64,000 nucleotides of DNA from Candidatus Latescibacterota bacterium (GCA_022823725.1 JAJEHL010000039.1:7632-71631); one strand, 5' to 3'; counted from the stretch's first letter, positions 1 to 30,511 are shown. Notes: generated by a model not told the origin, from the sequence alone. Made by a program: numbers and translations.

Positions 1-61
1 ACTGCTGGGCTAGTCTGATAACCTGCGGTTTTGGCATGTCGTTCTCGACACTTTTGGGTGA

Positions 62-301
62 TTCCTGTCTTTCCTTAGCCATTTCTACCTCCTGTCCAAA
101 TTTGGTCCCGGATCTACTCTATCGGAATATTACTGCCAGACGGGTCTTATCGCTAAAAATAAAAGAATGTCAGCGGCTTATGTCAACGCTCTTTCGGCAG
201 ACACTGCGCTTCGGTTGGTGCGTTACTTTGGAACCACAGATCAATTCTGGCTCAATCTGCATACGCGCTATAATTTAGATTTGGAGAAATCGCCTCGGTG
301 A
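62..301 (+). pseudogene. HigA-like XRE-family antitoxin, C-terminal region (remnant or start-less copy at window edge)
   Basis: Frame-2 translation ...KFGPGSTLSEYY...LSADTALRLVRYFGTTDQFWLNLHTRYNLDLEK ends at TGA 299-301. It matches the conserved HigA C-terminal motif (ALRL..FGTs.eFWLNLQ..YDL). The frame opens only after an in-frame TGA at 59-61 and has no ATG/GTG/TTG before the HTH region, so the gene is truncated, frameshifted or uses an unusual start. Confidence 0.35.
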
Positions 302-623
302 GCGATTGGAGGCAGAGGTGTGGGTTTTAGCGTGATGTGTTGACAGACATCCAATGACAGCAAATTGAGAACAACCTGCTCGAGCGGATGCGGGTGCCCC
401 AGACCTTTGGGAGCGCGTCAGAAAGATCCAGCGAGAGATCAACCCGTAATTCTCGAGCTGCTTACTCATCAGCCTCAGACTGCTCTCGACCACCTCATTC
501 ACATCCATCGCTTGGCGCGGCTCCTCGGACACATCACGGGAGAATACGCGCAAGTGATCGACCGTACCCGCCATCCTATCGGCCCACCCCGAACATCCTC
601 CATCAACTGTCTGTAAATCCCAT

Positions 624-2216
624 TCATACACCCGGACCTTTGACAAACATCCCTGGAGTCGCACCTGTGTGTTCGCCATTTTTGAGGACGTGGATGCCAT
701 TGACGAAGACGTCGCGGATGCCGGTAGAGAGTTGGTGGGAGTCGTCGAATGTCGAGCGGTCGGCGACGGTGTCGGGGGCAAAGACGACGACATCGGCCCA
801 GCAGTTGGGCTGGAGTCGCCCGCGGTCCCACAGTGAGAGGCGATTGGCGACCGAGGAGGTCATTTTGCGGATGGCTTCTTCGAGTGGCATGAGCTTTTCG
901 TCGCGGACATAGCGACCGAGGACGCGGGGATAGGTTCCGTACGACCGGGGGTGGAGCGGTCCCTCAGCAGCCGCCCATTCTGGATCGACGCCGCCCGCAT
1001 CTGTGGAGACTTTGATCCAGGGGAGTTGGAGTTGGAGACGGACGTTGTCTTCGGATATGGTGTGGTAGATGGTGAAGATGCGCTGGTTTTCCGATAGCAG
1101 GAGGTCGATGGTGGCTTCTATCCAGTCCTGGCCGCGCATCTCGGCAATTTCAGAAAGGCGCTTGCCGATGTACTGCTGATTTTCGGATTTTTTAAATCCG
1201 ACCGGAGCGATTCGGTCGGGGCGACGGGGAATCTCGCCCTGGCGGTTTCTGACTTCGGAGACGATTTTCGCGCGGGTGTCGGGATCGCGCAGGTTGGCGA
1301 AGAATTTGCCGTCTGCGGCCACCCAGGTGGGCAGGACAGTAGATAGGCCAGTGCCGCTGGCGGTGTAGGGGTACATATCGGCGGTGATGTCGAGGCCCTC
1401 GGCGCGTACTTGATTTATGCGCGCAATGACCTGGTGCATCTTGGGATAGTTGCGCTCGGGGACGGCTTTGAGGTGGTAGATTTCGACCGGGATGTTGGCG
1501 CGCTGTCCGATTTCGATGGCTTCGTCCAGGGCTTCGAGAAGTTTGTCGGCTTCGGACCGGATGTGGGTGATGTAGATGCCGCCAAATCTCGCCACTGTTT
1601 TGCAGATTTCGACGATTTCGTCTGTAGTGGTATATGTATCCGGTGGATAGATGAGGGCGTAGGAGGGACCGAAGGCGCCATCTTCCATGGATTCGGCCAT
1701 GATGCGGTGCATGGTTTTCATTTCGTCGGGGGTTGGCTCACCCATCCGCATGCCCATTGCGTGCGCGCGCAGGGTGCCCGCACCCAGGAAGGAGCCGACG
1801 TTGGGCGAGACACCGGCTTCGATCATGGCGTCGAGCCAGTTGCCAAAGCGATGCCAGCCCTGCGCCCGTTCCCGCCAGTTTTTGGGGAGAGATCGCGAGA
1901 GGTTATTGGAGCCGCCGACAGGTGCGGGGGTCCACGCTTCGCCCATGATTTCGGTCGTGATGCCCTGTGTGATTTTGGAGAGGCATCGGCCATCGCGCAT
2001 GAGTGGGACGATGGAGTGGCTCTGGATGTCGATGAAGCCGGGACAGACGATGTGACCGGAGGCATTGACGATTTCACCGATGTTATCGCGGGGGATGGTT
2101 CCCGGTGGCTCGATGGCGGATATTTTGCCGTTTTGTAGAGCGACATCGCCGTAGTGCCAGGGGTTGCCAGTGCCGTCAATGATCCTGCCTGAGTGAATAA
2201 GGGTAGTGATTGGCAT
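624..2216 (-). CDS. N-acyl-D-amino-acid deacylase (D-aminoacylase) family amidohydrolase
   Basis: The ORF reads MPITTLIHSGRIIDGTGNPWHYGDVALQNGKISAI...CPGFIDIQSHS..., typical of the D-aminoacylase/metal-dependent amidohydrolase family. The start is set at the internal ATG (2216) preceded by AAGGGA; the track ORF extends to 2366 and overlaps the upstream gene. Confidence 0.75.
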   Translation of the reverse strand: MPITTLIHSGRIIDGTGNPWHYGDVALQNGKISAIEPPGTIPRDNIGEIVNASGHIVCPGFIDIQSHSIVPLMRDGRCLSKITQGITTEIMGEAWTPAPVGGSNNLSRSLPKNWRERAQGWHRFGNWLDAMIEAGVSPNVGSFLGAGTLRAHAMGMRMGEPTPDEMKTMHRIMAESMEDGAFGPSYALIYPPDTYTTTDEIVEICKTVARFGGIYITHIRSEADKLLEALDEAIEIGQRANIPVEIYHLKAVPERNYPKMHQVIARINQVRAEGLDITADMYPYTASGTGLSTVLPTWVAADGKFFANLRDPDTRAKIVSEVRNRQGEIPRRPDRIAPVGFKKSENQQYIGKRLSEIAEMRGQDWIEATIDLLLSENQRIFTIYHTISEDNVRLQLQLPWIKVSTDAGGVDPEWAAAEGPLHPRSYGTYPRVLGRYVRDEKLMPLEEAIRKMTSSVANRLSLWDRGRLQPNCWADVVVFAPDTVADRSTFDDSHQLSTGIRDVFVNGIHVLKNGEHTGATPGMFVKGPGV

Positions 2217-2238
2217 GGGAGTCCCTTTCGTTTTTTTA

Positions 2239-3795
2239 TTAAAAGTCTGCGCCGAAGTTTTGGACAAAGATGAGGAAATCAGAGAAGGTAACGCGCAGGT
2301 CACCGTCGAGGTCAAAGGTGGGGTCAAAGCCAACGTCGCCTGCGGTTTTGCCAAAGCCCGAGACAAAGGCGAGGAAGTCTGAGAAGCCTATTTCACTGTC
2401 GCCATCAAAGTCTGATGTTGCGGGACCAGAAGCGAGTTCAGATACGGAGAGGGTGTAACCGATTGCTGTGCCAGATGTGGAGGTGATGGCGAGGCTTCGG
2501 GCAATATTGCCCGATGTGTGTATGCGTTTTGTCTGTGAGGCTGGGATGGGAATTGGCGCGGCAAAGGGTTGATTCCCTTCGGCAATGAGTGTGACGAGAA
2601 GGTCGTTGTCACCTGTGGATTGAATTGTGAAGGCGAGGTCGGGTGTTTTGCCCAGACCGAGATAGTCTATGCCCCAGCGCGTGGCGCGTCGCGTGAGATT
2701 GTTGGTCGGGACGGTGAGGATTTCGCGCTTTACCGGGGGCAGGTCAATGGCGCGATAGCCGAGGTCTCCCTCACCGTCGAGGTACATGGCTGCGGCCCAT
2801 TGCCCAAAGAGGTGATCAAAGCGTTCGGGCATGTTGAGCGATTGGAGAATATTGTCGATGCTCGCTATGCTGCTGTCTGGATCTGCGACGAGTTTGCGGA
2901 GTGCGCTGTCGCCATAGCGCTGTGCGAAATACGTCATATATAGATATGTCTGGTCAAAATCAAAAAACTGATCTTCCCAATAGGTGAGGTCTGTATTGGC
3001 CGCGAGCGAGAGAAAATTTTCAGTAGCGGCTGCTGTAGTGTCTTTGTATCCACAGGCGAGTTCGGCGTATTCCGAGCACCCTTCGTCGAGCCATTTGGCT
3101 TCGTCGGAATCGGCTTTCCAGTGGATCAGGTGCTGAAATTCGTGGGCGAGTGTGGCGCGTGCGAGGTTGCTGTCAATGTCAAGGGGACGGGCGTCGATAT
3201 AAATGATTTCGCGCGAGACGGGCGGGGCTTCGTTGTCGGTATCGATATAACCGATAAATGTGATGCCCGTGATTGGACTGTCGAGCACGTCGAGTACGAG
3301 GATGAGTATGCGGGGATCGGCATCGACATCTGGGGGATCGCCAAAGAGGTTGGTGACAGTCTCGTAAATGCCGAGGTCGGGATGACGTGCGGTGGATTGA
3401 TCAAACGCGCGTGCCAGGGATTCAATACCCGCTTGTGTTACGCGCGGGGTGTTCCACATGTCATCTTCTACAAAAATATAACAGTGGTCGCCCACATAGC
3501 GACAGGTTGTTGTGGTGTGGTATTTTCCGCCGCCAACGAGTTGGAAACTGTATGCGGGCAGCGTGAGTGTATCGCCAACGCGGAATGGCGTGGAGAAGGG
3601 AATTTTGGTCGCGGGGCGATAGGGTGTGGTTTGGCGTGGAATCAGGTGGGTTCCGCTTTGGGGGATGGGTTGGGCGTGGACGGAAAACCATCCGCAGAGG
3701 AACGCAGATGAGCACAGATAAATGCAAAAAGATCGCAATCCGGCTGTTATATTCGCGAAGAGGAGATCGCATTTGCGAATTGTTGGCGGAGACAT
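2239..3795 (-). CDS. secreted HExxH zinc metallopeptidase with C-terminal dockerin-like (EF-hand) repeat pair
   Basis: There is an N-terminal signal peptide (LRSFCIYLCSSAFLCGWFSVHAQP) and a LAHEFQHLIHW zincin motif. The C-terminus carries two repeats, DFDGDSEIGFSDFLAFVSGFG and DLDGDLRVTFSDFLIFVQNFG, with a DxDGDxxIxFxDF calcium-binding dockerin type-I-like pattern. Confidence 0.6.
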   Translation of the reverse strand: MSPPTIRKCDLLFANITAGLRSFCIYLCSSAFLCGWFSVHAQPIPQSGTHLIPRQTTPYRPATKIPFSTPFRVGDTLTLPAYSFQLVGGGKYHTTTTCRYVGDHCYIFVEDDMWNTPRVTQAGIESLARAFDQSTARHPDLGIYETVTNLFGDPPDVDADPRILILVLDVLDSPITGITFIGYIDTDNEAPPVSREIIYIDARPLDIDSNLARATLAHEFQHLIHWKADSDEAKWLDEGCSEYAELACGYKDTTAAATENFLSLAANTDLTYWEDQFFDFDQTYLYMTYFAQRYGDSALRKLVADPDSSIASIDNILQSLNMPERFDHLFGQWAAAMYLDGEGDLGYRAIDLPPVKREILTVPTNNLTRRATRWGIDYLGLGKTPDLAFTIQSTGDNDLLVTLIAEGNQPFAAPIPIPASQTKRIHTSGNIARSLAITSTSGTAIGYTLSVSELASGPATSDFDGDSEIGFSDFLAFVSGFGKTAGDVGFDPTFDLDGDLRVTFSDFLIFVQNFGADF

Positions 3796-3797
3796 TG

Positions 3798-4421
3798 TTA
3801 AAATCGGACTGAGAGTCGCACCTGTAAGTCCCCAGAGGTATTGGGGGAAACAGTTGCAATGGGACGGGTTTTGGCGGCGATGTTGGCGGCATTTAACGCG
3901 CTGGCAAAGCGATTGAAGATGAGTGCGCCCACAAAGAGAAAGCTGCGTGTGCGTGCCCAGGTGGCTTTGCTTCGCAGTTCTCGGAAGTGTTCACGGGAAG
4001 CCGGTGAGTCCCACTCCCAAAAGTTTTCGGGTGTTTCTGGTAGTGGGTTGCCCGATGAGCCTTCGACATATATCAATCGGGCGTTGTAGTCGTAGATGCT
4101 GTTGTAACTGGATAGGCGGTCGTAATGGGAGTTGGGTTTTTTGACGTTGGTTGCGCCAGCGCGTGCCGCGGCATAAGCGCGGAAGGTATTTTCTCGCGTG
4201 GTGTTGAGTTTTTGAAATGCAAATAATCCCGTCCAGAACATGCCTTCGGTAAATAGGAAAAATTTCGCAGATTTTCGCCCGCCCGCATATCGCTCGCCCA
4301 GGCCGGGTAAGAGGATCGATAAAAAGGCAGCTTTTTTTGGTGATTTCGCTTCTTGTGCAAATGCGGCAGACGGAGCGAGCAAACAGGCACAGACGATCAG
4401 GATTTGGGATGGTGTTTTCAT
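3798..4421 (-). CDS. secreted hypothetical protein (paralog A of tandem pair; conserved LLPGLGE-YAG motif)
   Basis: Signal peptide ILIVCACLLAPSAAFAQ. Shares AAFLSILLPGLGERYAGG / AFFLSLLVPGLGELYAGA, a FRAYA..R.. block and a C-terminal ...R.SV(E)L..RF with the neighbouring gene. Sits in the operon 3 nt from the upstream gene. Confidence 0.5.
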   Translation of the reverse strand: MKTPSQILIVCACLLAPSAAFAQEAKSPKKAAFLSILLPGLGERYAGGRKSAKFFLFTEGMFWTGLFAFQKLNTTRENTFRAYAAARAGATNVKKPNSHYDRLSSYNSIYDYNARLIYVEGSSGNPLPETPENFWEWDSPASREHFRELRSKATWARTRSFLFVGALIFNRFASALNAANIAAKTRPIATVSPNTSGDLQVRLSVRF

Positions 4422-4425
4422 GATG

Positions 4426-5097
4426 CTAAAATCTCGTTTTCAATTCAACCATGGACCGTCCATGACTATCGACAGGCGTGATGTCGATCCACAAGCTCGG
4501 ACCGGTCTTTTTTTGGCGTGTGCGCGTATAGGCCGAGGCGTGTATGGCACTGGCAATGTGGTTGAGTACTGCCAGACCTGTGACAACAGACGCGCGTTTG
4601 AGGTATTTGTTGCTGTCGTTGCGACGGGTTTCATAGTCCAGTCTGCGTGACGATGGCACGTTCTTATTGTCGGTGGAAAAGTCAGCCGTCACATCGTCCC
4701 AGCCATAGACAAATTGATGATATTTGCCAATGAGTTCGTAATACTGTTGCGTGTCGTTGCTTTTGGAAGGCAGGTCGTGGGTTTCGTAATACGGCTCGGG
4801 CTGAGTTTTGTTCCATTCCCGCCAGGCGGTGTACTGTGCTTCCTGCCAATGCCGATCGGCATATGCCCGAAATTCTTCCTTAATGTCATTGCCTTTGCTC
4901 CGCCATGAAACATAAGCGGTCCATGTGAGGGCTTCTGCACCTATAAATCCGACTGCGCGCATTTTGGCTCCGGCATATAATTCACCCAGACCCGGTACAA
5001 GTAGTGAGAGAAAGAAGGCCGTTTTAGGCGATTTTTCCGCAGCGACCTGTCCGCACATGAGCGCGAAAGCAAGCGTGCAGAGTGTGAATGTTCGCAT
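4426..5097 (-). CDS. secreted hypothetical protein (paralog B of tandem pair)
   Basis: Signal peptide TLCTLAFALMCGQVAAE. Same conserved blocks as 3798-4421 and the same C-terminal ...ELKTRF end, giving an aromatic terminus like outer-membrane proteins. Confidence 0.5.
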   Translation of the reverse strand: MRTFTLCTLAFALMCGQVAAEKSPKTAFFLSLLVPGLGELYAGAKMRAVGFIGAEALTWTAYVSWRSKGNDIKEEFRAYADRHWQEAQYTAWREWNKTQPEPYYETHDLPSKSNDTQQYYELIGKYHQFVYGWDDVTADFSTDNKNVPSSRRLDYETRRNDSNKYLKRASVVTGLAVLNHIASAIHASAYTRTRQKKTGPSLWIDITPVDSHGRSMVELKTRF

Positions 5098-5111
5098 GGG
5101 AATTCCTTTGG

Positions 5112-8100
5112 CTAAAAGTTGACTTTCCCAACATCCGTAACAAATCCAAATAATAATGTAAAATATACTTTAAAACCACTTTGTTCAAGTGGATCGCCAG
5201 CCCGTTGCAAAGGCACATGGTCGAAACCGTAGGCCACGTCGAGGCTGGCACGTGTGGGAAAAAGATAAAACGAGGTGGCGTCGTAGCGCAATTGCGTGCC
5301 CAGTTCGCGTTTCCATCCGCGTTTGAGTATCGCGTCGTCGGGTGTGCCATCCCAGGCGCGGGCGATTCCGGCAAAGAACGCGCCGTAGAGTTGATCGGAG
5401 TAGATTGGGCCTGTTTGTCGATCGATGCGCGACCATAAGGGAAAGCGATAAGCCGACCGCAACATCAGGGCGCGGCGACCTTCCAGGCTATAAAACGTAT
5501 ATCCTTTCATACCGGGCAAGCCCCCGAGAAAGAAGTCAAAGGTGTCGTCAACTTCGCTGTCGATCACGCCGCCAAAAAAGCGGAAACTCAGGGCACTGCG
5601 GCCGGGAGCGACCGGGATAAATTCGTTCCAGTCGAGGGAGAGTTGGTTGTAGAAATAGCGGTCGTAGGTTTCGACGATTAGCGAGGAATTTTCCTCAAAG
5701 CCGCTGATGAACCAGTTGAAATAGCGATCGTATCGCAGCGCGAGATGGCGTCCGGATCGGGGATTGATTTCCGAGTCTCGGGATCGACCTATGGCATTGA
5801 GGCGATAGGTGAGGGCGAGGTCAAATCCGTTGAGGGTGGTGGCGGCCACTATGTCGCGATTGAGGCCGTTGAATCGCGCTTGATCCAGGACTGCACCCGT
5901 GCGATTGTACACGAGGCGCGCGTCGATCGTACCGCCGCGTCTCAGGGTGTATTTGCCGCCTATTTCAATGCCCGTGAGCGCAAAGGTGCGGTTGTAGATG
6001 CGAAAGTCTTCGTCACGGCTGATTACATCTTCTTCAACGTGGCGCGATAGACGATAGGCTTCGAGAAAAAAGGTGGGGCGTTTTTTGCGGTATTCGTAAA
6101 GCGCGTACAGGTCCATATCCAGATCGTGGGCAAGCAGACCACTGATAAAAAAGGTTTGTTTTCGCAAGACGTCGTCGGATCCCGCTATGGCGCCGAGTTT
6201 GATTTTGCCGCTGTCAATTGCCAGACGCGGAAGTATGGTGGTGGATGAAAATTCGTTTTTGTATGGGCGGCTCGATATCGCGGGTTTGGGCGGTGTGGGG
6301 ACGAAGGGTTCGACTCGAAAAATGCTGGTCTCTACGGACTCTTTTAATGGCTGAGAGATAACGCGAATTTCGTAGGCGTTTTTGCCGTAGTGGCTATATG
6401 CGATGCGATGGCCATCTGGATGCACCTGGGGTTGAAATGCGCCGCCGTACACGCGGGTGAGGCGGTCTATTGCGCCGTTGGATAGATTGGCGCGATAGAG
6501 GTTGAAGATGCCGTCGTGGTCAGAGGCAAATACGAGGGATGAGCCATCGGGTGTCCAGCACGGATCGCGGTCGGTTTCGCGGGAGGCGATGCGCACTGTG
6601 TAGTCACCGCCTGTTGCGGGAATGGTGGCGATGTCCCGCGAGGTGCCGCTTTGGTAGAGCGAGAATGCGATTTGCGATCCATCGGGAGACCAACGCGGAG
6701 TGGCGACCTGTGAGCCATCGTCGAAAGATGTGAGATATCGAATAGTGTCTGCCGCGATGTCGAGGATACAAAGATTGGTGCTGCCCCCGCCGTTTTTGAT
6801 AAACGCTATTTGCGCTCCGTCTGGCGAATAGGCCGGGTGGATGCCGCGCAAGCCAGTGCTGAGGCGCGTTTCGCCCGGGAAAGTGGCTTGTGCGAGACCA
6901 ATTTTAGTTTTGACATTTTGAAATAGGCTCGATTTGACGGCTTTGGTTTCCATGGCGTAGAGGTCCCATTGCCGCGCACCGTATTTATTGGGCTGGCTGT
7001 GGCGCGCGTAGAGGAGTTGCTCGCCATCAGTTGACCAGTCAAAGGCCGTGACCGCGCTGGGAGCGGCGATTTCTACGCTGCTGTCGGCGAGGGTATAGAC
7101 CATCAAACTCGTGCGCCCATAATCGCTACCTTTATTGGAGAGGTAGGCGAGTTTTGTTCCATCGGGAGACCAGCGAGGGTGTAGATTGAGGTAGCCGTCT
7201 TCGCGGATGAGGTCGCCCTGTGCGGGACTGATTTCGATCTGTGCGATTTGATCCGCATAGCGTTTTTTGAGCGATGCGACCCAGCGCTCGTGCAATTCGC
7301 TTGCAGAGATGCCCAGGGTGGCGCGGATTGCGCCGCCAAAATCCGTGCGCCACCAGACTTTCATTTGCCGATACAATTCGGGGAGTTTGTCGCGCCCAAA
7401 AGTATCGACAATAAAGAGGGAGAGCGAGTAGCCGTGGTCGTACACTTTTTCAAATCCGAGACCTGTTTTGGCGCCAAAGACGGACATTTCGTCGCGGGTG
7501 AGTAAGCTTCCATTGCGCGTGGCCTGGCGCAAAACCATATCGCGGTGTGAGTCCCAGCGGTCGTGTTGTGCGCCCGGTGCCATGTATTGCGCCGTGCCTT
7601 CGGCAAACCAGGGCGGGATGATGGTGGCGGGAATGGCATAAGCGGCAAGGACATTGGGATAGCCAGCGAGGATGTCGTCGCGTTTGCCTTCGCCCTGATA
7701 TTGCAGGTAGTTGAGGAAGATGGCGGGGATGCGCCGCGAGGATTTTCGAGCGATTTGGAGCGAGATGATGTGCGTCAATTCGTGCGTTATCACGTTTGGA
7801 AGCCAATCTGTACTGCCGCGCAGTGCAAAGTCGAGGTTGGAGACCCAGATTTCGATGGTGTTGTGGTAATAATACGCTGCGCCATTGGCATAGTCTTCGG
7901 TGTCTTTGAGAATGATGCGGACTTTGCTATCGGGTTCAAAATTGTAAAAGGACGCGATCGGGCTGTACGCGTCTTCGGCGATTTGGGCAGCACGCGGAGC
8001 CAGCTTTTCCAGTCCCTGATGGTAATAGACTTTGAAGTGCTCGGTTTCAATGACGCGCCAGTTCAGTTCGGGGTGATTGGCGTCAAATTGCGCGAGGGCC

Positions 8101-8153
8101 TGTGTACTCAGGGTCAGGAGGATGAGGATCGTTTGTGTGAATTTGTAAGACAT
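5112..8153 (-). CDS. outer-membrane Omp85/BamA-type beta-barrel protein with N-terminal HExxH peptidase-like domain and TolB-like PD40 beta-propeller (no recognisable POTRA)
   Basis: Signal peptide (ILILLTLSTQALAQ), followed by the motif VITHELTHIIS. At least five PD40-type repeats are present (PRWSPDGTKLAYLS, PAYSPDGAQIAFIK, PRWSPDGSQIAFSL, PCWTPDGSSLVFAS, PQVHPDGHRIAYSH). The C-terminal roughly 350 aa carry Omp85 motifs (FLGGLPGMKGYTFYSLEGRRALMLRSAYRFPL) and the protein ends ...GKVNF with a terminal Phe. Confidence 0.65.
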   Translation of the reverse strand: MSYKFTQTILILLTLSTQALAQFDANHPELNWRVIETEHFKVYYHQGLEKLAPRAAQIAEDAYSPIASFYNFEPDSKVRIILKDTEDYANGAAYYYHNTIEIWVSNLDFALRGSTDWLPNVITHELTHIISLQIARKSSRRIPAIFLNYLQYQGEGKRDDILAGYPNVLAAYAIPATIIPPWFAEGTAQYMAPGAQHDRWDSHRDMVLRQATRNGSLLTRDEMSVFGAKTGLGFEKVYDHGYSLSLFIVDTFGRDKLPELYRQMKVWWRTDFGGAIRATLGISASELHERWVASLKKRYADQIAQIEISPAQGDLIREDGYLNLHPRWSPDGTKLAYLSNKGSDYGRTSLMVYTLADSSVEIAAPSAVTAFDWSTDGEQLLYARHSQPNKYGARQWDLYAMETKAVKSSLFQNVKTKIGLAQATFPGETRLSTGLRGIHPAYSPDGAQIAFIKNGGGSTNLCILDIAADTIRYLTSFDDGSQVATPRWSPDGSQIAFSLYQSGTSRDIATIPATGGDYTVRIASRETDRDPCWTPDGSSLVFASDHDGIFNLYRANLSNGAIDRLTRVYGGAFQPQVHPDGHRIAYSHYGKNAYEIRVISQPLKESVETSIFRVEPFVPTPPKPAISSRPYKNEFSSTTILPRLAIDSGKIKLGAIAGSDDVLRKQTFFISGLLAHDLDMDLYALYEYRKKRPTFFLEAYRLSRHVEEDVISRDEDFRIYNRTFALTGIEIGGKYTLRRGGTIDARLVYNRTGAVLDQARFNGLNRDIVAATTLNGFDLALTYRLNAIGRSRDSEINPRSGRHLALRYDRYFNWFISGFEENSSLIVETYDRYFYNQLSLDWNEFIPVAPGRSALSFRFFGGVIDSEVDDTFDFFLGGLPGMKGYTFYSLEGRRALMLRSAYRFPLWSRIDRQTGPIYSDQLYGAFFAGIARAWDGTPDDAILKRGWKRELGTQLRYDATSFYLFPTRASLDVAYGFDHVPLQRAGDPLEQSGFKVYFTLLFGFVTDVGKVNF

Positions 8154-8165
8154 AGTGTTAATGGT

Positions 8166-11156
8166 TTACTTAATTACTGCGGCTTTGATAAATCGCACCT
8201 CTGTGCGCGTGCTATTGCTGGCTTGCAGGCGACAGATATAGAGGCCGCTGGCATAATCGGATATATCCCAGGCGATTTCGTTGTCAGTATTGGGCATGGG
8301 ATTGTTGTGAGTGAGGTCGGCGACTCTTTCACCGAGGGGATTGTAAATGGTCATAGTGATTTCGGCGGGTTCTAACAAAAAAAAGCGAATGCGCGCCCTG
8401 TCGCCATTGCGGATCGGGTTGGGGTAGAGATATGCTCGTGCCGCAGGTAAAAGCGAGGTTTCTGTTGGGGTTGCGATTTCGCCCGGCTGTTGGAGCAATT
8501 TGCCCGTGTTGCCCGGTCCGCCGCCGAGTTGTCCCCAGATAATTTTGTTACCGGTATAAGATGGGTCAATTGTTTCCAGGTGGAAGAGTTGCGCGCTGCC
8601 GTCGGCGGTATAGATAATGAGTTCCAGGGTGCCGTCGTTGTCAAGGTCGTCGATAAGTGGTGATGAGAGAATGGGGCCGGGTACTAACAGAGGGAAGCCC
8701 GGTAGGGAATGTCCTTCGGCGGTCAGACCGTAGAGGAAGCCACCGCGTGTACCCGCGAAAATATCGGGGGTTGTGTCGTTATTGATGTCGGCGAGAATAG
8801 GCGGTGCTTCAATGGGGCCGGCGTCGTCTTTTATCGGGAGGGCGAGTGCGCCTTCGGTTTGCAAGATGGCGTTGAAGCGATAAAGCCAGAGTTTGCCGTT
8901 GCCGCCAAAGAGGACTTCGACAAATCCGTCGCGATCGACGTCGGCTACAACAGGGGGTGAATGCGCGCCGCCGGGTACGGGATCGCTTGTGAAGGCGAGG
9001 CCGTTGGCGTCGAGGATGGAGAGGATACCGTCTGTTGAGATGACTGCAATGTCGTCATTGCCATCGCGGTCGAGGTCGCCTATTGCCGGGCCGCCGATGA
9101 TGGGAGACGCGAATGTGGCGAGTGGATTGGATTGGTTGGTTCTGTGAATGAGGTGGAGCTGAGCACTGCTGGTAATGGCGATGAGTTCATTGTCCGAGTC
9201 GCCGTCGATATTTCCCACGGCGAGCGATTGGATGGCATCGCTCAGGGCGATGCTGCCCGTGGTTTCAGATAGAAGATTACCCCATTCGATTTTTCCATCG
9301 CTCCTTCCCCAGATATCGACATATGTTGTGGGGAATTTTGCAATGACGGGTGTTGAAGAGAAAAATGGATTGATATCGATGGTTTCGTGGACTGTACCAC
9401 TGGGACGCCAGTGCGTTCGGGTTGTTTCTCCGCGATGATAGATGAATCCGGCTATTTCCGGGTCGCCAATTGCAGGGGTTGTCGCAAATGACTCGTCCAG
9501 GCTGTGCTGTGTGCCCGCGATTTTCCACGCGCCAGCACTGTGAAGGATTTCTTTGCTTCCATCTCCGTCGAGGTCGATGACGCGGGGCGACTCCCGTGTG
9601 GGATTCAAGTTTGTAATCGGCCAGTTATCTATCCGATTGGCAAAACGGATAGCAACTGACATTACTTCGCCGTGTGGGCTGAGTACTTCGATAGTTATGC
9701 CGCTTTCATAGCCTGAGTTGCTGCGGGTGTTCGGCGAGGTGTTGGGATCAAATACGGCGTTGTTGCCCACGTAAAAGGCGTCTTCTGGCGCGCCTTCGAT
9801 ACTGCTTAATGAGATGATACCAGCTTGAATGATGCGGCTGGCCGATACATTGCCGATGTCTTGAAGGCCATCGGCTTCCTCGAGGGCAATGCCGCGGCGA
9901 TATTGGGCGGGTGCAATTTTGTAATCGGGATGGCTATTGATGTGTTTTTCTGCATTGCTGGCCCGAATAATCGCATCGTCAATGTGGTAGATGAGAATGC
10001 CCGAGCCGGGTATGAATGCGTCGTAGTCATCTGTGGAAAGCCAGACATTATGAGGGGTAGAAAATTCGATTTGCGGGATGCGATTTTCAATATTGAGGCG
10101 CGAGTAGCGATTTTCAATTAAAAAATATTCTGTGGCGCTGATAGGTACGCGAATAGCCTGCGGAAGATCGGACGCGCTACCGGATGCAGCGATTTCTACG
10201 GTGTCGTTGTGGGTGATCACGAGTGGTTCGAGCCAGCCGAGTTGCATGCGGCACCAGGCGATCATGCGACTGGGCAAGAATCCAATCAAATTTGTGCTGG
10301 CGGGGTCGTTTCTGAGGGGTTGGAGTCCCAGGCGCGCGGCGTCAATTTGATTGTTGGCACCCGTGTCCATCAAACTCCAGTCGCCAATTGCAGGCAGATC
10401 GTTTTCAAAGTCCGAAAGACCGGGCAAGCCGAGTTGCGAGGCAAAAAATCGAGCGATCGTACCGTTGAGACCACCCTGACCATTTGTGCTGATGGCTTCG
10501 GGCAATAGCATGCCCGATGTGACCTGAAAAGCACCGTTGTTGACGGAAATCGCGCCGTCGGCGAGTTCGATGAGGTCGCGTTCAAAAATAAAGGCCGAGG
10601 GTATATCATTGAGTTTTTGACCTGCTTCTCCGCCGAGTCCCGCATGAAATACTGCAAAGGCGCGGTATTTTGAGAAATCTATATTTGCGCCATCTGTGTT
10701 ATCCGCAGCGCGAATACCATCCCGAAAAAGCCGCGTGACGCGCTCATTTATTTCGCGCCTTGTGCGCCCATTGCCGTATTCGATCAAGGGGGTGTCGAGG
10801 ACGTAACTCGCGGTGGAGTCTTGTGGATAGACATCGTATTCGATGGTTAGTTGACCTCGGGATATGTCGCGGTAATAATTGGACAGTGCCTGCAGGTGGG
10901 CTTCAAAATAGGCGCGGTCATGGGGGGGGGCATCAAAGGGGTAGATGCGATCGGGACTTTCGACTGTACTGAGATTGAACGTGCCGTTTCCACTGGTGGT
11001 TTCGTTGTCGGGATCTTCGGGGGGAAAAGAGACGCGCACGGCTAAGACGCGATAGGTTGGGTCAGCTATAATAGGCTGTACAAAAAGGGCTATAAGACAC
11101 AGGAGGATTCCGCATCTGGACAGAAGGGTCATAGTTAAGCGTGTATTCGGTTTCAT
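8166..11156 (-). CDS. large secreted M6 (immune-inhibitor-A)-like domain protein with FG-GAP repeats and T9SS C-terminal sorting domain
   Basis: Signal peptide is present. The segment ...TIARFFASQLGLPGLSDFENDLPAIGDWSLMDTG resembles the M6 HEYGHNLGLPDEY...WSLM region, but with the His/Glu positions substituted. There are at least six FG-GAP-like Ca-binding repeats (IDLDGDGSKEIL, GNIDGDSDNELIAI, GDLDRDGNDDIAVI, ADVDRDGFVEVLF, ADINNDTTPDIFAG, DDLDNDGTLELIIY). The C-terminus LYPNPIRNGDRARIRFFL...TMTIYNPLGERVADL...GLYICRLQA...VRFIKAAVIK fits the T9SS CTD (Por secretion tail). Confidence 0.7.
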   Translation of the reverse strand: MKPNTRLTMTLLSRCGILLCLIALFVQPIIADPTYRVLAVRVSFPPEDPDNETTSGNGTFNLSTVESPDRIYPFDAPPHDRAYFEAHLQALSNYYRDISRGQLTIEYDVYPQDSTASYVLDTPLIEYGNGRTRREINERVTRLFRDGIRAADNTDGANIDFSKYRAFAVFHAGLGGEAGQKLNDIPSAFIFERDLIELADGAISVNNGAFQVTSGMLLPEAISTNGQGGLNGTIARFFASQLGLPGLSDFENDLPAIGDWSLMDTGANNQIDAARLGLQPLRNDPASTNLIGFLPSRMIAWCRMQLGWLEPLVITHNDTVEIAASGSASDLPQAIRVPISATEYFLIENRYSRLNIENRIPQIEFSTPHNVWLSTDDYDAFIPGSGILIYHIDDAIIRASNAEKHINSHPDYKIAPAQYRRGIALEEADGLQDIGNVSASRIIQAGIISLSSIEGAPEDAFYVGNNAVFDPNTSPNTRSNSGYESGITIEVLSPHGEVMSVAIRFANRIDNWPITNLNPTRESPRVIDLDGDGSKEILHSAGAWKIAGTQHSLDESFATTPAIGDPEIAGFIYHRGETTRTHWRPSGTVHETIDINPFFSSTPVIAKFPTTYVDIWGRSDGKIEWGNLLSETTGSIALSDAIQSLAVGNIDGDSDNELIAITSSAQLHLIHRTNQSNPLATFASPIIGGPAIGDLDRDGNDDIAVISTDGILSILDANGLAFTSDPVPGGAHSPPVVADVDRDGFVEVLFGGNGKLWLYRFNAILQTEGALALPIKDDAGPIEAPPILADINNDTTPDIFAGTRGGFLYGLTAEGHSLPGFPLLVPGPILSSPLIDDLDNDGTLELIIYTADGSAQLFHLETIDPSYTGNKIIWGQLGGGPGNTGKLLQQPGEIATPTETSLLPAARAYLYPNPIRNGDRARIRFFLLEPAEITMTIYNPLGERVADLTHNNPMPNTDNEIAWDISDYASGLYICRLQASNSTRTEVRFIKAAVIK

Positions 11157-11165
11157 AATGCGAGA

Positions 11166-12512
11166 TCAGTGAGAATAGCTGATGCGATAGATCAGGCCGG
11201 CCTGGTCGTCCGATACGAGCAGGGAACCGTCGGGCATGACGAGTACATCGACTGGCCTGCCCCAGTTCGATTCGCCCTGCAGCCAGCCTTTTGCGAATGG
11301 CTCATAGCTGACTGCCTCGTTGCCATTCAGGCGCACCAGGGTGACGCGGTAGCCGATCTTGCTGCTGCGATTCCAGGATCCGTGTTCGGCGATAAAGATC
11401 TGATTGCGGTACTCCTCTGGAAACATGTCGCCAGTGTAGAAGCGCATTCCCAGAGCCGCTACGTGTGGGCCGAGTTCCTGGACCGGCGCGACGAACTCGC
11501 CGCAGCTACGCTGATCGCCGAATACAGGATCGGCGATGTTGGTGCCGTGGCAGTAGGGATAGCCGAAGTGCTGTCCATTGACGGTTATTCTGTTCAGTTC
11601 GTCCGGTGGCACATCGTCGCCCATTCTGTCTCTTCCGTTGTCCGTGAACCACAGTTCGCCCGTTTCCGGATGCCAATCGAAACCGACGGTGTTGCGAATG
11701 CCTCGCGCTATGATGCCGAAGTTGCCATTGGTGTCCAATCTTCCGATTGAGGCGTACGGATCGCCGCGATTGCAGATGTTGCACGGCGCGCCGACGGGTA
11801 CGTACAGCAAACCGTCGGGGCCAAAGCGGATGAACTTCCAGCCGTGCGATCGATTCGTGGGAAAAGTGTCGTTGACGATTTCCGGCTGTGGCGGGTTGTC
11901 GAGTTGTGCTTCGATGTTGCGATAGCGCAGGATGCGGTTGATTTCGGCTACGTACAGGTCGCCGTTCTTGAAGGCGACGCCGTTGGGGTTGTTCATGCCG
12001 CGGGCGAGGATGATGACTCGTTCTGCTTTGTGGTCGCCATCTTCGTCGCGTAGTGCGTACACGCGGCCACTGGGGCGAGTGCCGACAAAGAGGGTGCCGT
12101 GTGGACTGAGGCTCATTGAGCGAGCACCCGTTATCCCTTCGGCGTATATGTGAATGTGGAATCCTTCAGGTAGTTCAATTCGCGTCAGGCGTGGATCGCT
12201 GGGTGGTTGTGGTGCCGTTGATGATGCCGCAAAGCTATTGACAAATAGCAGAAAATCGTCAAATGCAATCTCGCCATTCCCATCCAGGTCGTATTTCGCA
12301 TCGTACCGCTCTTGGCCGGCTTGAGATCCGAATGCGGTGACAAATAGCAAAAAGTCGGGAAAATCGACAACACCATTGCCATTAAAGTCCGAAGAAGGGG
12401 GACTGCTATTTTGAGAAAAAAGAGGCGAAAGCAAGAGTGTGAAGTTCAGCAAACTGGCGGTGCCGAGCGCGAGAAGGCGAGGTCTGGCATTGTATCTCAA
12501 GAGATTTAGCAT
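11166..12512 (-). CDS. PQQ-dependent soluble aldose/sorbosone dehydrogenase (GSDH family) with N-terminal dockerin-like repeat pair
   Basis: A signal peptide is followed by DFNGNGVVDFPDFLLFVTAFG and DLDGNGEIAFDDFLLFVNSFAA (dockerin/EF-hand pattern). The body matches GSDH/YliI-type beta-propeller dehydrogenases (...RNTVGFDWHPETGELWFTDNGRDRMGDDVPPDELNRITVNGQHFGYPYCHG...). Confidence 0.7.
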   Translation of the reverse strand: MLNLLRYNARPRLLALGTASLLNFTLLLSPLFSQNSSPPSSDFNGNGVVDFPDFLLFVTAFGSQAGQERYDAKYDLDGNGEIAFDDFLLFVNSFAASSTAPQPPSDPRLTRIELPEGFHIHIYAEGITGARSMSLSPHGTLFVGTRPSGRVYALRDEDGDHKAERVIILARGMNNPNGVAFKNGDLYVAEINRILRYRNIEAQLDNPPQPEIVNDTFPTNRSHGWKFIRFGPDGLLYVPVGAPCNICNRGDPYASIGRLDTNGNFGIIARGIRNTVGFDWHPETGELWFTDNGRDRMGDDVPPDELNRITVNGQHFGYPYCHGTNIADPVFGDQRSCGEFVAPVQELGPHVAALGMRFYTGDMFPEEYRNQIFIAEHGSWNRSSKIGYRVTLVRLNGNEAVSYEPFAKGWLQGESNWGRPVDVLVMPDGSLLVSDDQAGLIYRISYSH

Positions 12513-12569
12513 TGTATTTCAACTGATGTCTTCGTCGCAAGGAGAATCAGTTTGCTGAACTTGCGAGGA

Positions 12570-13634
12570 TTAAAATATAAATCCACCCGTAAAGCGGAAT
12601 GTATTGCTGGCAGGCGTATCTTCCGTCGGCACAAAATACGAGATATCGAAATTTGCCCAGTTGTATTTTAAACCCAGCCCAAAGGTGGGAAAGTTGCGTT
12701 TGCCATCCTTGTCGTAGGAATAGCCACTGCGCAGGGCAAAAGACGAATCTTCAGATAGCTGGTACATCCATTCGGCACCTACGCGGTAATCTATATCGTC
12801 AAATTCCGTAAAACCGTTTCCGCCCGGATTGGGCTTCCAGCCAAAGGTGTCGTCGTGCCAGCCAGAAATAAAGGAAAAGAAATTATCAGAGGCGAGAGGT
12901 TTGTAAATATCTGTGGTGAGCATCAGGGAAGACGAGTTGTTTTTCATCACTTTGTATGCGATGCCAAAAACGAAATTTTGCGGCAGCGGATCTGCCTGGT
13001 CGGCATCGATAAAGGTCATGTTTGGGCCAACATTGCGCAATACGCTACCGAAGCTAAGCCGATCTGTGGCGGCCCACATGAGACCTATGTCTCCGGCAAA
13101 AGAAGTCGCAGTGCCTTTGCCTTGCTCAATGCCCGCACCTGCGTCGGAGAGGTTTTCATGGATAAACTTAACCGTGATGCCCAGTGCCAGATTTTTGAAG
13201 AGATGCGTGCCATAAGATACACCCAGGGCCATGCCGTAGCTTTTAAATGTACCTAAAAGATTTCCCTCTTCATCGGTGCGTTGTTGTTCGCCCAAAGAAC
13301 TATAAATGAGGCTATATCCCAAATTGCCAATGCCACTAAAGGGATGTGTATAAGCACCGAATGACGAAAAGATGTCGCCGGCCAGTCGGGGAACAGGTTT
13401 GTACAGAGTGGTGCTGAGACTGTGAATTTGTAATGAAGCCAGTGCGGCGGGGTTGTAGTACGTGGCATTTGCGTCATTGGCAATAGCGACATAAGCATTG
13501 CCCATGCCCGCTGCACGGGCCGATGGCGCGAACAACAGAAAATTGGCTGCGGCATGGCTTTCGGGCGTTGCATAAACTGGCGTGCTGAGCAGGCCAATGC
13601 CAAGCGCAAATAGGGTGAGAAGACGGTATTTCAT
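12570..13634 (-). CDS. FadL-like outer-membrane beta-barrel, PorV/PorQ-family candidate (T9SS-associated)
   Basis: Signal peptide LFALGIGLLSTPVYA. The N-terminal hatch motif SARAAGMGNAYVAIANDANATYYNPAALA is typical of PorV/PorQ/FadL-like proteins. It is beta-strand-rich throughout, ends ...FTGGFIF with a terminal Phe, and is the first gene of the operon containing a T9SS cargo. Confidence 0.5.
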   Translation of the reverse strand: MKYRLLTLFALGIGLLSTPVYATPESHAAANFLLFAPSARAAGMGNAYVAIANDANATYYNPAALASLQIHSLSTTLYKPVPRLAGDIFSSFGAYTHPFSGIGNLGYSLIYSSLGEQQRTDEEGNLLGTFKSYGMALGVSYGTHLFKNLALGITVKFIHENLSDAGAGIEQGKGTATSFAGDIGLMWAATDRLSFGSVLRNVGPNMTFIDADQADPLPQNFVFGIAYKVMKNNSSSLMLTTDIYKPLASDNFFSFISGWHDDTFGWKPNPGGNGFTEFDDIDYRVGAEWMYQLSEDSSFALRSGYSYDKDGKRNFPTFGLGLKYNWANFDISYFVPTEDTPASNTFRFTGGFIF

Positions 13635-13929
13635 TGGGGCTCTCCTTTATGGAATTGGCCGGGAAGCTTGCAAAACATAAAAAAACCCGGCCGTGAGCGC
13701 GTGTGAACGCGCCACCAACCGGGGGGCATTCTAACATCGCGCGCTAAAGCAAGCACATCTCGAATATCGGACAAGATTTTACTGATGCAAAAAAACAGCG
13801 CTTTAGCGGTGATGCGATAGATAAATTTCCTGATTAATGGTGAGATAAGATCAAAAAAACCGCTTGTTTGAGACTCGCGTGTTGCCTATTTTCAGATCAC
13901 GAATTTTTGATTGATGAAAGGGAAGAACC

Positions 13930-14193
13930 GTGATTGACCGAGACTTACTCGATATTTTGGCCTGTCCAGAGAACAAAATGCCCGTAAAATTGGCCGATCA
14001 ACCGCTGATAGACGCCATCAACAGTGCGATTGCAAAAGGCGAGGTTAAAAACCGAGGCGGACAAAAAATTGAACAGCCAATTGATGGAGGCCTGGTGCGG
14101 GAAGATTACATCTGTTTATATCCCATTCAGGACGCGATTCCCATTATGTTGATCGACGAATCCATCCCAATAGAAAAATTCGCGGCTCAATAG
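13930..14193 (+). CDS. Trm112-family small protein (UPF0434/DUF343)
   Basis: MIDRDLLDILACPENKMPVKL... carries the LLDILACP...C-less Trm112-like motif. It is small (87 aa) and stand-alone. Confidence 0.6.
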   Translation: MIDRDLLDILACPENKMPVKLADQPLIDAINSAIAKGEVKNRGGQKIEQPIDGGLVREDYICLYPIQDAIPIMLIDESIPIEKFAAQ

Positions 14194-14346
14194 CTTTTTC
14201 CTCATTTTTAAAGTATTTTAAAACTTCAGCAAATCCTTCCCATGTGTCAAGCCTTTTTTGTTCGGTTTAGACGTTTCCACATGCAGCGGGTTCCGTATTT
14301 TTTAAAATTTATATAATATATAATATTTGGTCACACGTGGGTCGTT

Positions 14347-29464: not shown

Positions 29465-30490
29465 ATGAGTTTCAAACGGATTCAGCCCATTCCCAGTGCA
29501 GAAGAAATTCAAGATGTTTTGCCTCTGCCCGATGATTTGAAGGCTAAGAAGGATGAACGCGATGCCGAGATTCGGGCTGTTTTTGAGCGTAAGAGCGATA
29601 AGTTTTTGTTGATTATTGGTCCTTGCTCGGCTCACAATGTCGATGCGGTGTGCGAATATGTGAATCGCCTATCGCGACTTCAAGAGCAGGTGAAAGACAA
29701 GTTGGTGCTCGTGCCGCGGATTTATACCAATAAGCCGCGCACGACTGGCGAAGGGTATAAGGGCATGGCCCATCAACCCGATCCCGAGGGTATGCCCGAT
29801 ATGGTTGTTGGGATTAAGACTATTCGGCAGATGCAGATTCGCGCTTTTCGCGAGTCGCATTTGACGGCTGCCGATGAGATGCTCTATCCTTCGAATTTGC
29901 CTTATGTGGAGGATTTGCTGAGTTATATTGCCGTGGGGGCGCGGTCTGTTGAGAATCAGAATCATCGCCTGACCATTAGCGGTGTCGATGTGCCTGCGGG
30001 CATGAAAAATCCAACGGGTGGCGATCTGGATGTGATGTTCAATGCCATTTATGCAGCGCAAATTCCGCATGTATTTTTTCACAACGGTTGGGAAGTCAGC
30101 ACGTCGGGCAATCCGCTGACGCATGCGGTGTTGCGCGGAATGTCGTATAATGGGCGGAGCATCCCCAATTATCACTACGAAGATTTGATGCATGTTGCCG
30201 AGCAATACCTGACGCGCAAGTTGAGCAATCCGACGATTATTGTGGATACGAATCACAACAATTCAGATAAAACGTTTTCCGAACAGCCGCGCATTGGTCT
30301 GGAGGTGATGCGCAGCCGCCGCCATTCTGCGCTTCTTCACAATGTGGTGCGCGGGTTGATGGTGGAGAGCTATCTGGTGGAAGGCGCGCAAAAACCCGAA
30401 GAGGGGATATTTGGGAAGTCGATTACCGATCCATGCCTGGGGTGGGAAGATACGGAAGTGTTTGTGAAAGACCTGGCGGGTCTGGTTTAG
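29465..30490 (+). CDS. 3-deoxy-7-phosphoheptulonate (DAHP) synthase, class I alpha
   Basis: ...FLLIIGPCSAHNVDAVCEYVNRL... and ...KNPTGGDL... are class I DAHP synthase blocks. Confidence 0.85.
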   Translation: MSFKRIQPIPSAEEIQDVLPLPDDLKAKKDERDAEIRAVFERKSDKFLLIIGPCSAHNVDAVCEYVNRLSRLQEQVKDKLVLVPRIYTNKPRTTGEGYKGMAHQPDPEGMPDMVVGIKTIRQMQIRAFRESHLTAADEMLYPSNLPYVEDLLSYIAVGARSVENQNHRLTISGVDVPAGMKNPTGGDLDVMFNAIYAAQIPHVFFHNGWEVSTSGNPLTHAVLRGMSYNGRSIPNYHYEDLMHVAEQYLTRKLSNPTIIVDTNHNNSDKTFSEQPRIGLEVMRSRRHSALLHNVVRGLMVESYLVEGAQKPEEGIFGKSITDPCLGWEDTEVFVKDLAGLV

Positions 30491-30511
30491 GGGTGTGAAA
30501 CCCCCAGATAA

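Follow-up and report, generated by a model that had tools for sequence, protein, structure and literature searches.

A candidate accessory module of type IX secretion, conserved across phyla, with a PorV-family barrel, an M6-like pseudoprotease and an Omp85-fused zinc peptidase

To our knowledge, almost all that is understood about the type IX secretion system, or T9SS, comes from a few Bacteroidia (Porphyromonas, Flavobacterium and Cytophaga). The closest described systems to the subject of this report include the PorU-PorV-PorQ-PorZ attachment complex of Porphyromonas gingivalis, whose PorZ subunit has two propellers and a retained C-terminal domain (CTD) (PMC5562754, PMC8545088, PMC12365241). 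Others are the gene pairs for cargo with a type B CTD and a PorP-like anchor, the barrel of which is thought to hold the cargo on the surface (PMC9143113), and the "WD40-Omp85" cluster defined in 2014 by Heinz and Lithgow, which has a TolB-like propeller and an Omp85 barrel and is without POTRA domains (PMC4104836). For WD40-Omp85 proteins, the Phyre2 table of that study gave an N-terminal aminopeptidase- or collagenase-like match for ~100 proteins, its sole functional suggestion was a resemblance to a BamA-BamB fusion, and it makes no mention of type IX secretion, gene neighborhoods or operons; no functional follow-up was found in the literature. Here we describe a gene cluster in which relatives of PorV and of WD40-Omp85 are encoded together, starting from a 64,000-nucleotide stretch of DNA from Candidatus Latescibacterota bacterium (GCA_022823725.1 JAJEHL010000039.1:7632-71631), referred to below as the window, whose minus strand carries eight open reading frames (ORFs) between positions 13634 and 624.

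Comparison of the window with homologous loci revealed a conserved unit composed of PorV, an M6-like pseudoprotease, an Omp85-type barrel protein fused to a zinc peptidase, one or two small proteins and, optionally, an HExxH peptidase. The row of genes in the window is a local, decorated copy of this five-to-six-gene cluster, with two extra genes and with a dockerin-like module in place of the T9SS CTD of the HExxH peptidase. It is highly probable that the cluster is a conserved accessory module linked to the T9SS. An earlier, sequence-only reading of the same DNA had taken all eight genes for one operon encoding a candidate self-contained machine for surface display, proteolysis or peptide scavenging.

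Conservation of the gene cluster and its position beside porU

One genome per GTDB species was scanned, and at least 535 species were found to encode a relative. Hidden Markov models (HMMs) of the window proteins were mapped on all ORFs of 86 loci (L001-L086), and counts were made over the 81 non-redundant loci, with denominators that differ because each count takes only loci with enough flanking sequence. The models of the dehydrogenase and the HExxH peptidase were built without the dockerin-like module that the two share, to avoid cross-matching. Phylum labels were read from the best 80 loci, all of them from metagenome-assembled genomes (MAGs) or single-amplified genomes, and comprise Latescibacterota, Gemmatimonadota, Handelsmanbacteria, KSB1, Ignavibacteria, Calditrichota, LCP-89, Krumholzibacteriia and several labeled "Bacteroidota" or "Chlorobiaceae".

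Of 67 loci, 65 have the PorV gene upstream of the Omp85 gene, and the M6-like and Omp85 genes are direct neighbors in at least 62 of 68, with several of the misses being ORF-calling artefacts. Downstream of the Omp85 gene, at least one small-protein gene is found in 70 of 75 loci (two copies in 44 of 69), and the HExxH peptidase is the sixth gene in 29 of 62. When all ORFs of the neighborhoods were clustered against each other without supervision, the families of the module ranked first, with members in 84, 76, 74, 66, 42 and 28 loci. Closed Latescibacterota genomes, OZ242195.1 and OX638317.1 among them, hold loci nearly identical to that of the window, with 97% protein identity in OZ242195.1. 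Loci with homologues at 61%, 52% and 43% identity keep the order PorV, M6-like protein, Omp85 peptidase, small protein, small protein, ~500-residue protein. These three have no dehydrogenase and no amidohydrolase gene, and in one MAG a 1232-residue Peptidase_C25 protein is encoded directly upstream of PorV. Conservation of the neighborhood in relatives had been proposed by the sequence-only reading as its own test, and the core order is indeed kept across phyla. This bears out a co-oriented, tightly packed envelope module in which two kinds of barrel, one PorV-type and one a dedicated Omp85-type, are combined with a T9SS substrate. The eight-gene unit itself did not survive the comparison: the genes for a pyrroloquinoline quinone (PQQ) dehydrogenase and a D-aminoacylase are present only in the seven loci closest to the window and are therefore lineage-specific additions.

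The C25 proteins encoded upstream of the cluster are PorU, with scores of 636-958 bits for NF033707 against a cut-off of 420, and porU is found directly upstream in 35 of 61 loci. The module is therefore best seen as an appendage of the T9SS sorting locus, and the description of it as self-contained has to be given up. The NCBIfam models PorU2 and PorV2 were also considered for the module-adjacent PorU and PorV and were rejected, as the canonical models score far better. A homologue search aimed at cultured carriers returned MAG proteins only. In Cytophaga hutchinsonii, porV is followed, according to published work, by small genes (CHU_3239-3241), the first of which is annotated as a zinc protease; thus, the module does not occur in this form after porV in that species.

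Additional genes were observed in and around the cluster in some lineages. Some loci encode, on the opposite strand and 5-7 kb downstream, a second PorV/PorQ-family barrel of 300-330 residues (L005:21116-22048, L029:21062-21988 and L004:19624-20526, all minus strand; also in L033, L035, L037 and L049). Its nearest model in L005 and L029 is "PorV2" (150-176 bits, cut-off 325); the L004 protein is nearer to PorV_fam and PorQ. Ignavibacteria-type loci have an extra lipoprotein of ~215-230 residues, with a lipobox Cys and a FlgD-Ig-like stretch, between the M6-like and Omp85 genes (L044:8997-9650, L046:9341-9985, L056:9276-9932, L061:9312-9977, L076:9294-9980 and six more loci), and KSB1-type loci have a different small secreted protein at the same junction (L042:9316-9963, L051:9286-9966). 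Together with the dehydrogenase gene of the window, the lipoprotein and the KSB1 protein indicate that the module tolerates lineage-specific inserts at its gene junctions.

Proteins of the conserved core

Profile-HMM scans upheld nearly all of the domain calls that had been made from the sequence alone, with the corrections given below. The first gene of the row (12570-13634, minus strand) encodes a PorV-family outer-membrane barrel of 354 residues with a signal peptide and a C-terminal F, assigned by family HMMs and by position. Its earlier description as a FadL/PorV-like barrel is confirmed by NF033709 (PorV/PorQ family), for which it scores 231.6 bits against a cut-off of 90, and by the Pfam PorV model (64.8 against 27). 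On the equivalog T9SS_OM_PorV (NF033710) the window protein reaches 162 bits, below the cut-off of 250; of its positional orthologues, that of the Ignavibacteria-type locus L076 passes with 296 bits and that of L005, which is adjacent to porU, fails with 170. The shortfall tracks distance from the Bacteroidia and not paralogy. By position, the window protein is the orthologue of PorV, the outer-membrane shuttle of T9SS cargo, which binds type-A CTDs.

The M6-like protein (996 residues; 8166-11156, minus strand) consists of an M6-like domain, FG-GAP β-propeller repeats and a type-A T9SS C-terminal sorting domain at residues 910-991 (8184-8429, minus strand). All three parts of the earlier call were recovered, by NF052323 and the M6 domain model TIGR03296 (59.5 bits), by FG-GAP_3 (57 bits), and by TIGR04183 (35.8 bits against 23) and PF18962 (30.8 against 27). 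What was lost is its standing as a protease. The zinc motif HExxH is degenerate, reading RFFAS at residues 236-240 (10437-10451, minus strand), which makes the protein a pseudoprotease, in keeping with its NCBIfam name. The motif is destroyed in all 72 aligned orthologues, three of which keep both His residues (HQFGH) and have only the Glu replaced. For NF052323 (T9SSA_dep_M6i) the window protein scores 362.9 bits, below the cut-off of 600; syntenic orthologues in L076 (767.5) and in the KSB1 locus L051 (643.5) pass, and those in L072 (501), L005 (327), L003 (328) and L004 (316) fall under it. Because positional orthologues pass both the PorV equivalog and NF052323, the lower scores in the window reflect divergence and not different genes.

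The third core gene (5112-8153, minus strand) encodes an outer-membrane protein of 1013 residues with a signal peptide and three domains. In an AlphaFold2 model built from the homologue alignment (predicted local distance difference test, pLDDT, 87.8; predicted template modeling score, pTM, 0.86) these are an MA-clan, gluzincin-like zinc peptidase (residues ~30-310), a single TolB-like β-propeller (~314-607) and a barrel with 16 strands by DSSP (~639-1002). Pfam identified Peptidase_MA_2 and PD40 repeats. The HExxH motif is intact (HELTH, residues 124-128; 7770-7784, minus strand), and as H124, E125, H128 and E185 are invariant in 70 aligned homologues (42-84% identity), the peptidase is probably active. 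More than 2,400 full-length homologues were found.

The barrel (5148-6239, minus strand) is closest to BamA and TamA in fold comparison. Its loop between strands 11 and 12 contains the motif MKGY (residues 882-885), with G884 and Y885 unchanged throughout the alignment and M882 conserved to at least 90%. This motif sits where the L6 motif VRGF/Y of BamA lies, with Lys replacing Arg. The BamA motif, (V/I/L)RG(F/Y), reads LRGY in Flavobacterium johnsoniae (PMC12611786). No POTRA domain was detected by Pfam or in the AlphaFold2 secondary structure of the protein. PF01103 did not match the window protein at E ≤ 0.01 and matched five of 18 aligned homologues (best E 1.2e-11), and profile searches against PDB sequences matched the protein in its propeller alone. 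Thus, of the earlier call of HExxH, PD40 and an Omp85 barrel, the HELTH motif, the repeats and a 16-strand barrel with the Omp85 fold were borne out and a match to the Omp85 family model was not. The protein had also been described as an atypical Omp85, an architecture that was in fact catalogued in 2014 as WD40-Omp85 (PMC4104836). Neither the Omp85 peptidase nor the small proteins are covered by an NCBIfam model. The public names of the 1013-residue family include "biopolymer transporter Tol", "Tol biopolymer transport system component", "PD40 domain-containing protein" and "BamA/TamA family outer membrane protein", some members being simply "hypothetical", and neither the peptidase domain nor the T9SS context can be read from any of these names.

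Two small secreted proteins follow, A (223 residues; 4426-5097, minus strand) and B (207 residues; 3798-4421, minus strand), and they are paralogues with signal peptides, as had been proposed (BLASTP E 3e-12). Both score below the cut-off of 26.7 bits for DUF5683 (PF18935), with 21.8 and 20.9 bits, respectively; they are divergent DUF5683 relatives, since several homologues at 50-65% identity carry PF18935. The AlphaFold2 model of a small protein (pLDDT 85) has long helices at residues 45-83 and 150-196 and a low-confidence C-terminal β-hairpin, which in A ends in RF. Hydropathy peaks are modest (1.3-1.45 over 19 residues), and no solved relative was found by sequence in the PDB or by fold. 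An aromatic C-terminus is present in 99 of 114 members of the family in L001-L086 (F in 79, W in 16 and Y in four), mostly as RF. In the same loci 40 of 71 PorV orthologues end in F, so the C-terminal signature typical of outer-membrane proteins (OMPs) is stronger in the small proteins than in PorV. The small proteins thus carry an OMP-type C-terminal signal on what is predicted to be a helical, non-barrel protein.

Lineage-specific features of the window

The sixth core gene (2239-3795, minus strand) encodes a metallopeptidase of 518 residues with a signal peptide, the HExxH motif HEFQH and a C-terminal dockerin-like module at residues 460-516 (2248-2418, minus strand). Its matches to MXAN_6640_HExxH (26 bits) and Peptidase_MA_2 (17 bits) are weak, and HExxH is kept by every orthologue. 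The same module is found near the N-terminus of the dehydrogenase, a PQQ-type sugar dehydrogenase-like β-propeller of 448 residues with a signal peptide (11166-12512, minus strand) that is encoded between the PorV and M6-like genes and scores 61.4 bits for GSDH (PF07995) against a cut-off of 25, 57 for DUF7133 and 84 for TIGR02604. At residues 41-96 (12225-12392, minus strand) it has a double Ca-loop that matches EF-hand_1 (23.9 bits) and falls short of the cut-off of Dockerin_1 (PF00404; 21.2 against 22.9). The last 55 residues of the peptidase are homologous to this module (E 4e-16, 40% identity), and both contain two D-x-[DN]-G-[DN]...F-x-DF repeats, each a Ca-binding loop and a helix. Dockerin_1 itself did not match the peptidase at E ≤ 0.01, and the score for NF041540 dockerin_GC (20.3 bits) was likewise under the cut-off of 29. 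The two enzymes had been described as dockerin-tagged; the sugar dehydrogenase, the HEFQH motif and the homology of the two modules stand, and the name dockerin is sub-threshold in one and without a Pfam match in the other. No cohesin domain was detected in the eight products by Pfam or NCBIfam.

The position of the module on the peptidase is occupied differently in other lineages. In the clade of the window (21 loci, none with an adjacent porU) the C-terminus of the peptidase is the dockerin-like module, and in the porU-adjacent clade a type-A T9SS CTD stands at the same place, with TIGR04183 scores of 29.7, 24.1, 22.9, 22.8, 21.6, 20.9 and 18.5 bits against a cut-off of 23. As orthologues carry a CTD there, the dockerin-like tag is a lineage-specific replacement for a T9SS sorting and anchoring signal, and a dockerin-based assembly, which had been proposed as a feature of the whole system, is a local peculiarity. 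Further ORFs were matched only through the module in related loci labeled Latescibacterota or Gemmatimonadota (L008:18879-21053, L015:21498-23024, L016:12313-13059 and L063:21661-22529, all minus strand), so the tag seems common in this lineage. In addition, an orphan half-module (YEAKYDLDGDGTIGFGDFLIFANDFGKEAS) lies in the window at 30506-30598 on the plus strand, intergenic, bounded by stop codons and just after a DAHP-synthase-like ORF (29465-30490). It looks like a relic of a dockerin-tagged gene.

The last gene (624-2216, minus strand) encodes an amidohydrolase of 530 residues, and its identification as a D-aminoacylase homologue is well supported by homology over the full length to solved structures (D-aminoacylase PDB 1m7j, E 3e-69; N-acyl-D-glutamate deacylase 3gip, E 8e-61; Amidohydro_3 PF07969, 66 bits). 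Its N-terminus, MPITTLIHSGRIIDGTG, is a conserved amidohydrolase start without a signal peptide, and the protein is therefore cytoplasmic.

An independent gene call on the metagenome contig of origin (ERZ23491381 scaffold_195, 120 kb) gave the same eight co-oriented genes. The gaps between them are, in the order of transcription, 57, 9, 12, 14, 4, 2 and 22 nucleotides, which agrees for six gaps with the earlier account of 2-15 nucleotides and one gap of 57. The last is 22 nucleotides, with the amidohydrolase starting at an ATG (MPITT...) and not at an upstream TTG that overlaps the preceding gene. Seven of the eight products have plausible signal peptides, the amidohydrolase being the exception to what had been claimed for all.

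A conserved 5′ leader precedes the PorV gene. About 45 nucleotides upstream of its start codon a GC-rich hairpin is followed by U7 (13679-13723, minus strand), and a strong ribosome binding site (AAAGGAGA) lies after the hairpin. The leader (13635-13780) has a predicted RNA fold of -49 kcal/mol (z -1.9), and in four related species it is 91% identical with an invariant hairpin. The hairpin is on the coding strand, between divergent genes, and has a TAGAAT box just upstream; it could be an attenuator, a 5′ stabilizer or a remnant terminator. An Rfam scan of positions 1-15000, hairpin included, identified no family, and a scan of positions 1-14400 for sigma-70 promoters and intrinsic terminators gave counts at chance level that are uninformative on the transcription unit. 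The divergent upstream block (13930-14193 and 14347-15807, plus strand, to ~18000) is also syntenic in Latescibacterota loci (L001, L003 and L004). Its genes encode a small Trm112p-like protein, a DsbH-type thioredoxin (in 18 loci), an NAD-dependent epimerase (in 28 loci), a glycosyltransferase or S41 peptidase, and an FtsX-type permease. What remains of the window is made up of housekeeping genes, among them the trp genes and those for ArgRS, purF and permeases.

Proposed function, alternatives and relation to known systems

The best overall explanation, to which we assign a probability of roughly 60%, is that the cluster serves the T9SS as an accessory module at the step where cargo is sorted and attached. 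PorV would collect CTD cargo at the translocon, and the pseudoprotease-propeller would be kept at the cell surface by its CTD, as an adaptor that binds or scaffolds without catalysis, in the manner of PorZ on PorQ without being homologous to it. The Omp85-anchored peptidase and the secreted HExxH peptidase would trim cargo, or clear cleaved CTDs and stalled cargo, and the small helical proteins would dock to the barrel through their C-terminal hairpin by β-augmentation. The HExxH peptidase of this lineage would have exchanged its T9SS CTD for a dockerin-like anchor, and the dehydrogenase and D-aminoacylase would be recent lineage-specific insertions and not parts of the machine. This particular division of labor is offered tentatively, as the less likely part of the proposal.

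Several points weigh against this explanation. Both PorV (162 of 250 bits) and the M6-like protein (363 of 600) of the window are under the NCBIfam equivalog cut-offs, porU is not adjacent in the window's own clade, and three loci (L059, L060 and L073) hold a solo paralogue without a PorV or M6-like gene. PorV is the only core member with experiments behind it, and the proposed roles of the pseudoprotease, Omp85 peptidase and small proteins are drawn by analogy. The peptidase and propeller may face either the periplasm or the surface. Finally, some WD40-Omp85 accessions are probably from Myxococcota, Vibrio and Geobacter, and the cluster presumably includes phyla without a T9SS; if so, the basic job of the fold is not specific to the T9SS.

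The accessory-module proposal can also be taken further, to a joint claim that the module runs the attachment and processing step in most phyla of the Fibrobacterota-Chlorobiota-Bacteroidota (FCB) group outside the class Bacteroidia. In that case the pseudoprotease-propeller would be a PorZ-like adaptor, the two live peptidases would remove or recycle CTDs, and the Omp85 barrel would serve as a lasting receptor that the helical small proteins plug into by β-augmentation, through their aromatic C-terminal hairpin. Taken as a whole, this extension is doubtful.

The alternative that survives best, although we consider it unlikely, is a device for OMP biogenesis or quality control, in which the Omp85 barrel would be a dedicated insertase or holdase for T9SS barrels (PorV, PorQ-like proteins or SprA) or for the small proteins, whose C-termini resemble a β-signal, and its fused peptidase and propeller would degrade stalled periplasmic clients, as BepA does with the β-barrel assembly machinery (BAM). 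The N-terminal domains of Omp85 proteins are normally periplasmic, which suits this role, as do the closeness of the barrel fold to BamA and TamA, the conserved MKGY motif at the L6 position and the encoding of small proteins with an OMP-type aromatic C-terminus immediately downstream. The resemblance of WD40-Omp85 to a BamA-BamB fusion noted by Heinz and Lithgow (PMC4104836) points the same way. However, POTRA, the client-handling domain of BamA and TamA, is lacking, PorV and SprA are not known to need a special insertase, and the tightest-linked neighbor of the Omp85 gene, which encodes the CTD-bearing pseudoprotease, is left unexplained.

The machine proposed by the sequence-only reading, in which dockerin-tagged enzymes would assemble on a cohesin-like partner at the surface, the peptidases would digest extracellular protein and the D-aminoacylase would finish the peptides inside the cell, is less probable still. 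It draws on two peptidases with intact HExxH, the two homologous dockerin-like modules, the D-aminoacylase homologue at the 3′ end and the tight spacing of all eight genes. Against it, the dehydrogenase and D-aminoacylase are absent outside the seven closest loci, other lineages have a T9SS CTD where the peptidase of the window has its dockerin-like module, the M6-like protein has lost its catalytic site, no product has a detectable cohesin-like domain, and the cluster is tied to porU in 35 of the 61 loci.

An equally low probability attaches to a type Vd-like autotransporter, in which the Omp85 barrel would export its own peptidase and propeller to the surface, a model of topology that partly overlaps with the accessory-module proposal. 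An N-terminal enzyme followed by a C-terminal 16-strand Omp85 barrel parallels the PlpD-type T5d proteins, a precedent that Heinz and Lithgow discuss for another Omp85-enzyme fusion (PMC4104836), and the other enzymes of the module are surface proteins, CTD-bearing or dockerin-tagged. Of the type Vd arrangement of passenger, POTRA and 16-strand barrel, the 1013-residue protein has the barrel and is missing the POTRA. Fortuitous adjacency of unrelated envelope genes, which the recent addition of two of the eight genes might suggest, has a negligible probability and is refuted for the core genes by an order that persists under eight or more phylum-level labels and at protein identities of 33-97%.

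The interest of an accessory module of T9SS sorting and attachment lies in its reach, as several hundred species or more, from Latescibacterota, Gemmatimonadota, KSB1, Ignavibacteria, Calditrichota and their relatives, keep the cluster next to porU or porV, and in the fact that the WD40-Omp85 peptidase fusion has been a functional orphan since 2014. If these proteins do work with PorU and PorV, the step of cargo release and attachment would have a second architecture of wide distribution, a function would be found for an orphan branch of the Omp85 superfamily, and the swap of a CTD for a dockerin-like module would be a natural experiment in the anchoring of surface enzymes. The module offers a testable function for two orphan families, which matters to specialists of the T9SS and of Omp85, and it bears on the annotation of Omp85-peptidase proteins that are now filed under Tol, PD40 or "hypothetical" names.

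The arrangement had been thought not to be a described system, and this stands for the ensemble: no description was found in the literature of the ensemble, its porU/porV linkage or the CTD-to-dockerin swap. It does not stand for the single parts, PorV, NF052323, WD40-Omp85 (PMC4104836) and DUF5683, which are already catalogued. NF052323, the "T9SS-dependent M6-like inactivated metalloprotease", has the same domain order as the M6-like protein and has likewise lost HExxH; the window protein is a diverged Latescibacterota branch of it, and the NCBIfam name treats the protein as cargo and is silent on its conserved neighbors. WD40-Omp85 shares with the 1013-residue protein the fusion of a propeller to an Omp85 barrel without POTRA and the N-terminal peptidase-like match, but it is a broader cluster with several paralogues per genome, whereas the window protein belongs to an orthologous group locked to PorV and the M6-like gene. 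The dockerin-like modules resemble the type I dockerins of cellulosomes (PF00404) in having two tandem Ca-binding loop-helix repeats of ~22 residues at a protein terminus. They differ in being below the Pfam cut-off and in having no cohesin among the operon products, and, as one replaces a T9SS CTD on an orthologous peptidase, an alternative surface-anchoring tag is suggested.

The parallels with PlpD (type Vd), which also has an enzyme N-terminal to a 16-strand Omp85 barrel, and with BepA and BAM, where a zinc protease acts at an Omp85 machine, are by analogy only. Unlike PlpD, the Omp85 protein of the module has neither POTRA nor a patatin domain, and its protease is covalently fused, whereas BepA is a soluble partner. 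As in the pairs of type B CTD cargo and PorP-like anchor, a T9SS cargo gene adjoins a gene for an outer-membrane barrel; however, the CTD here is of type A and the neighboring barrels are PorV and Omp85-type, not PorP/SprF.

The likeness to the PorU-PorV-PorQ-PorZ complex extends to the PorV-family barrel, to the adjacency of porU and porV in most related loci, to a large propeller surface protein with a type-A CTD that is comparable to PorZ, and, in some loci of the module, to a second PorV/PorQ-family barrel nearby. The differences are equally clear. No link to anionic lipopolysaccharide (A-LPS) is known for the module, the carriers of which, as far as seen, are uncultured lineages outside the Bacteroidia, and its CTD protein joins an M6 pseudoprotease to an FG-GAP propeller and is not homologous to PorZ. 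In addition to what it shares with the P. gingivalis complex, the module has DUF5683-like proteins and two peptidases, one the zinc peptidase fused to the Omp85 barrel and the other the HExxH peptidase, and none of these has a counterpart there.

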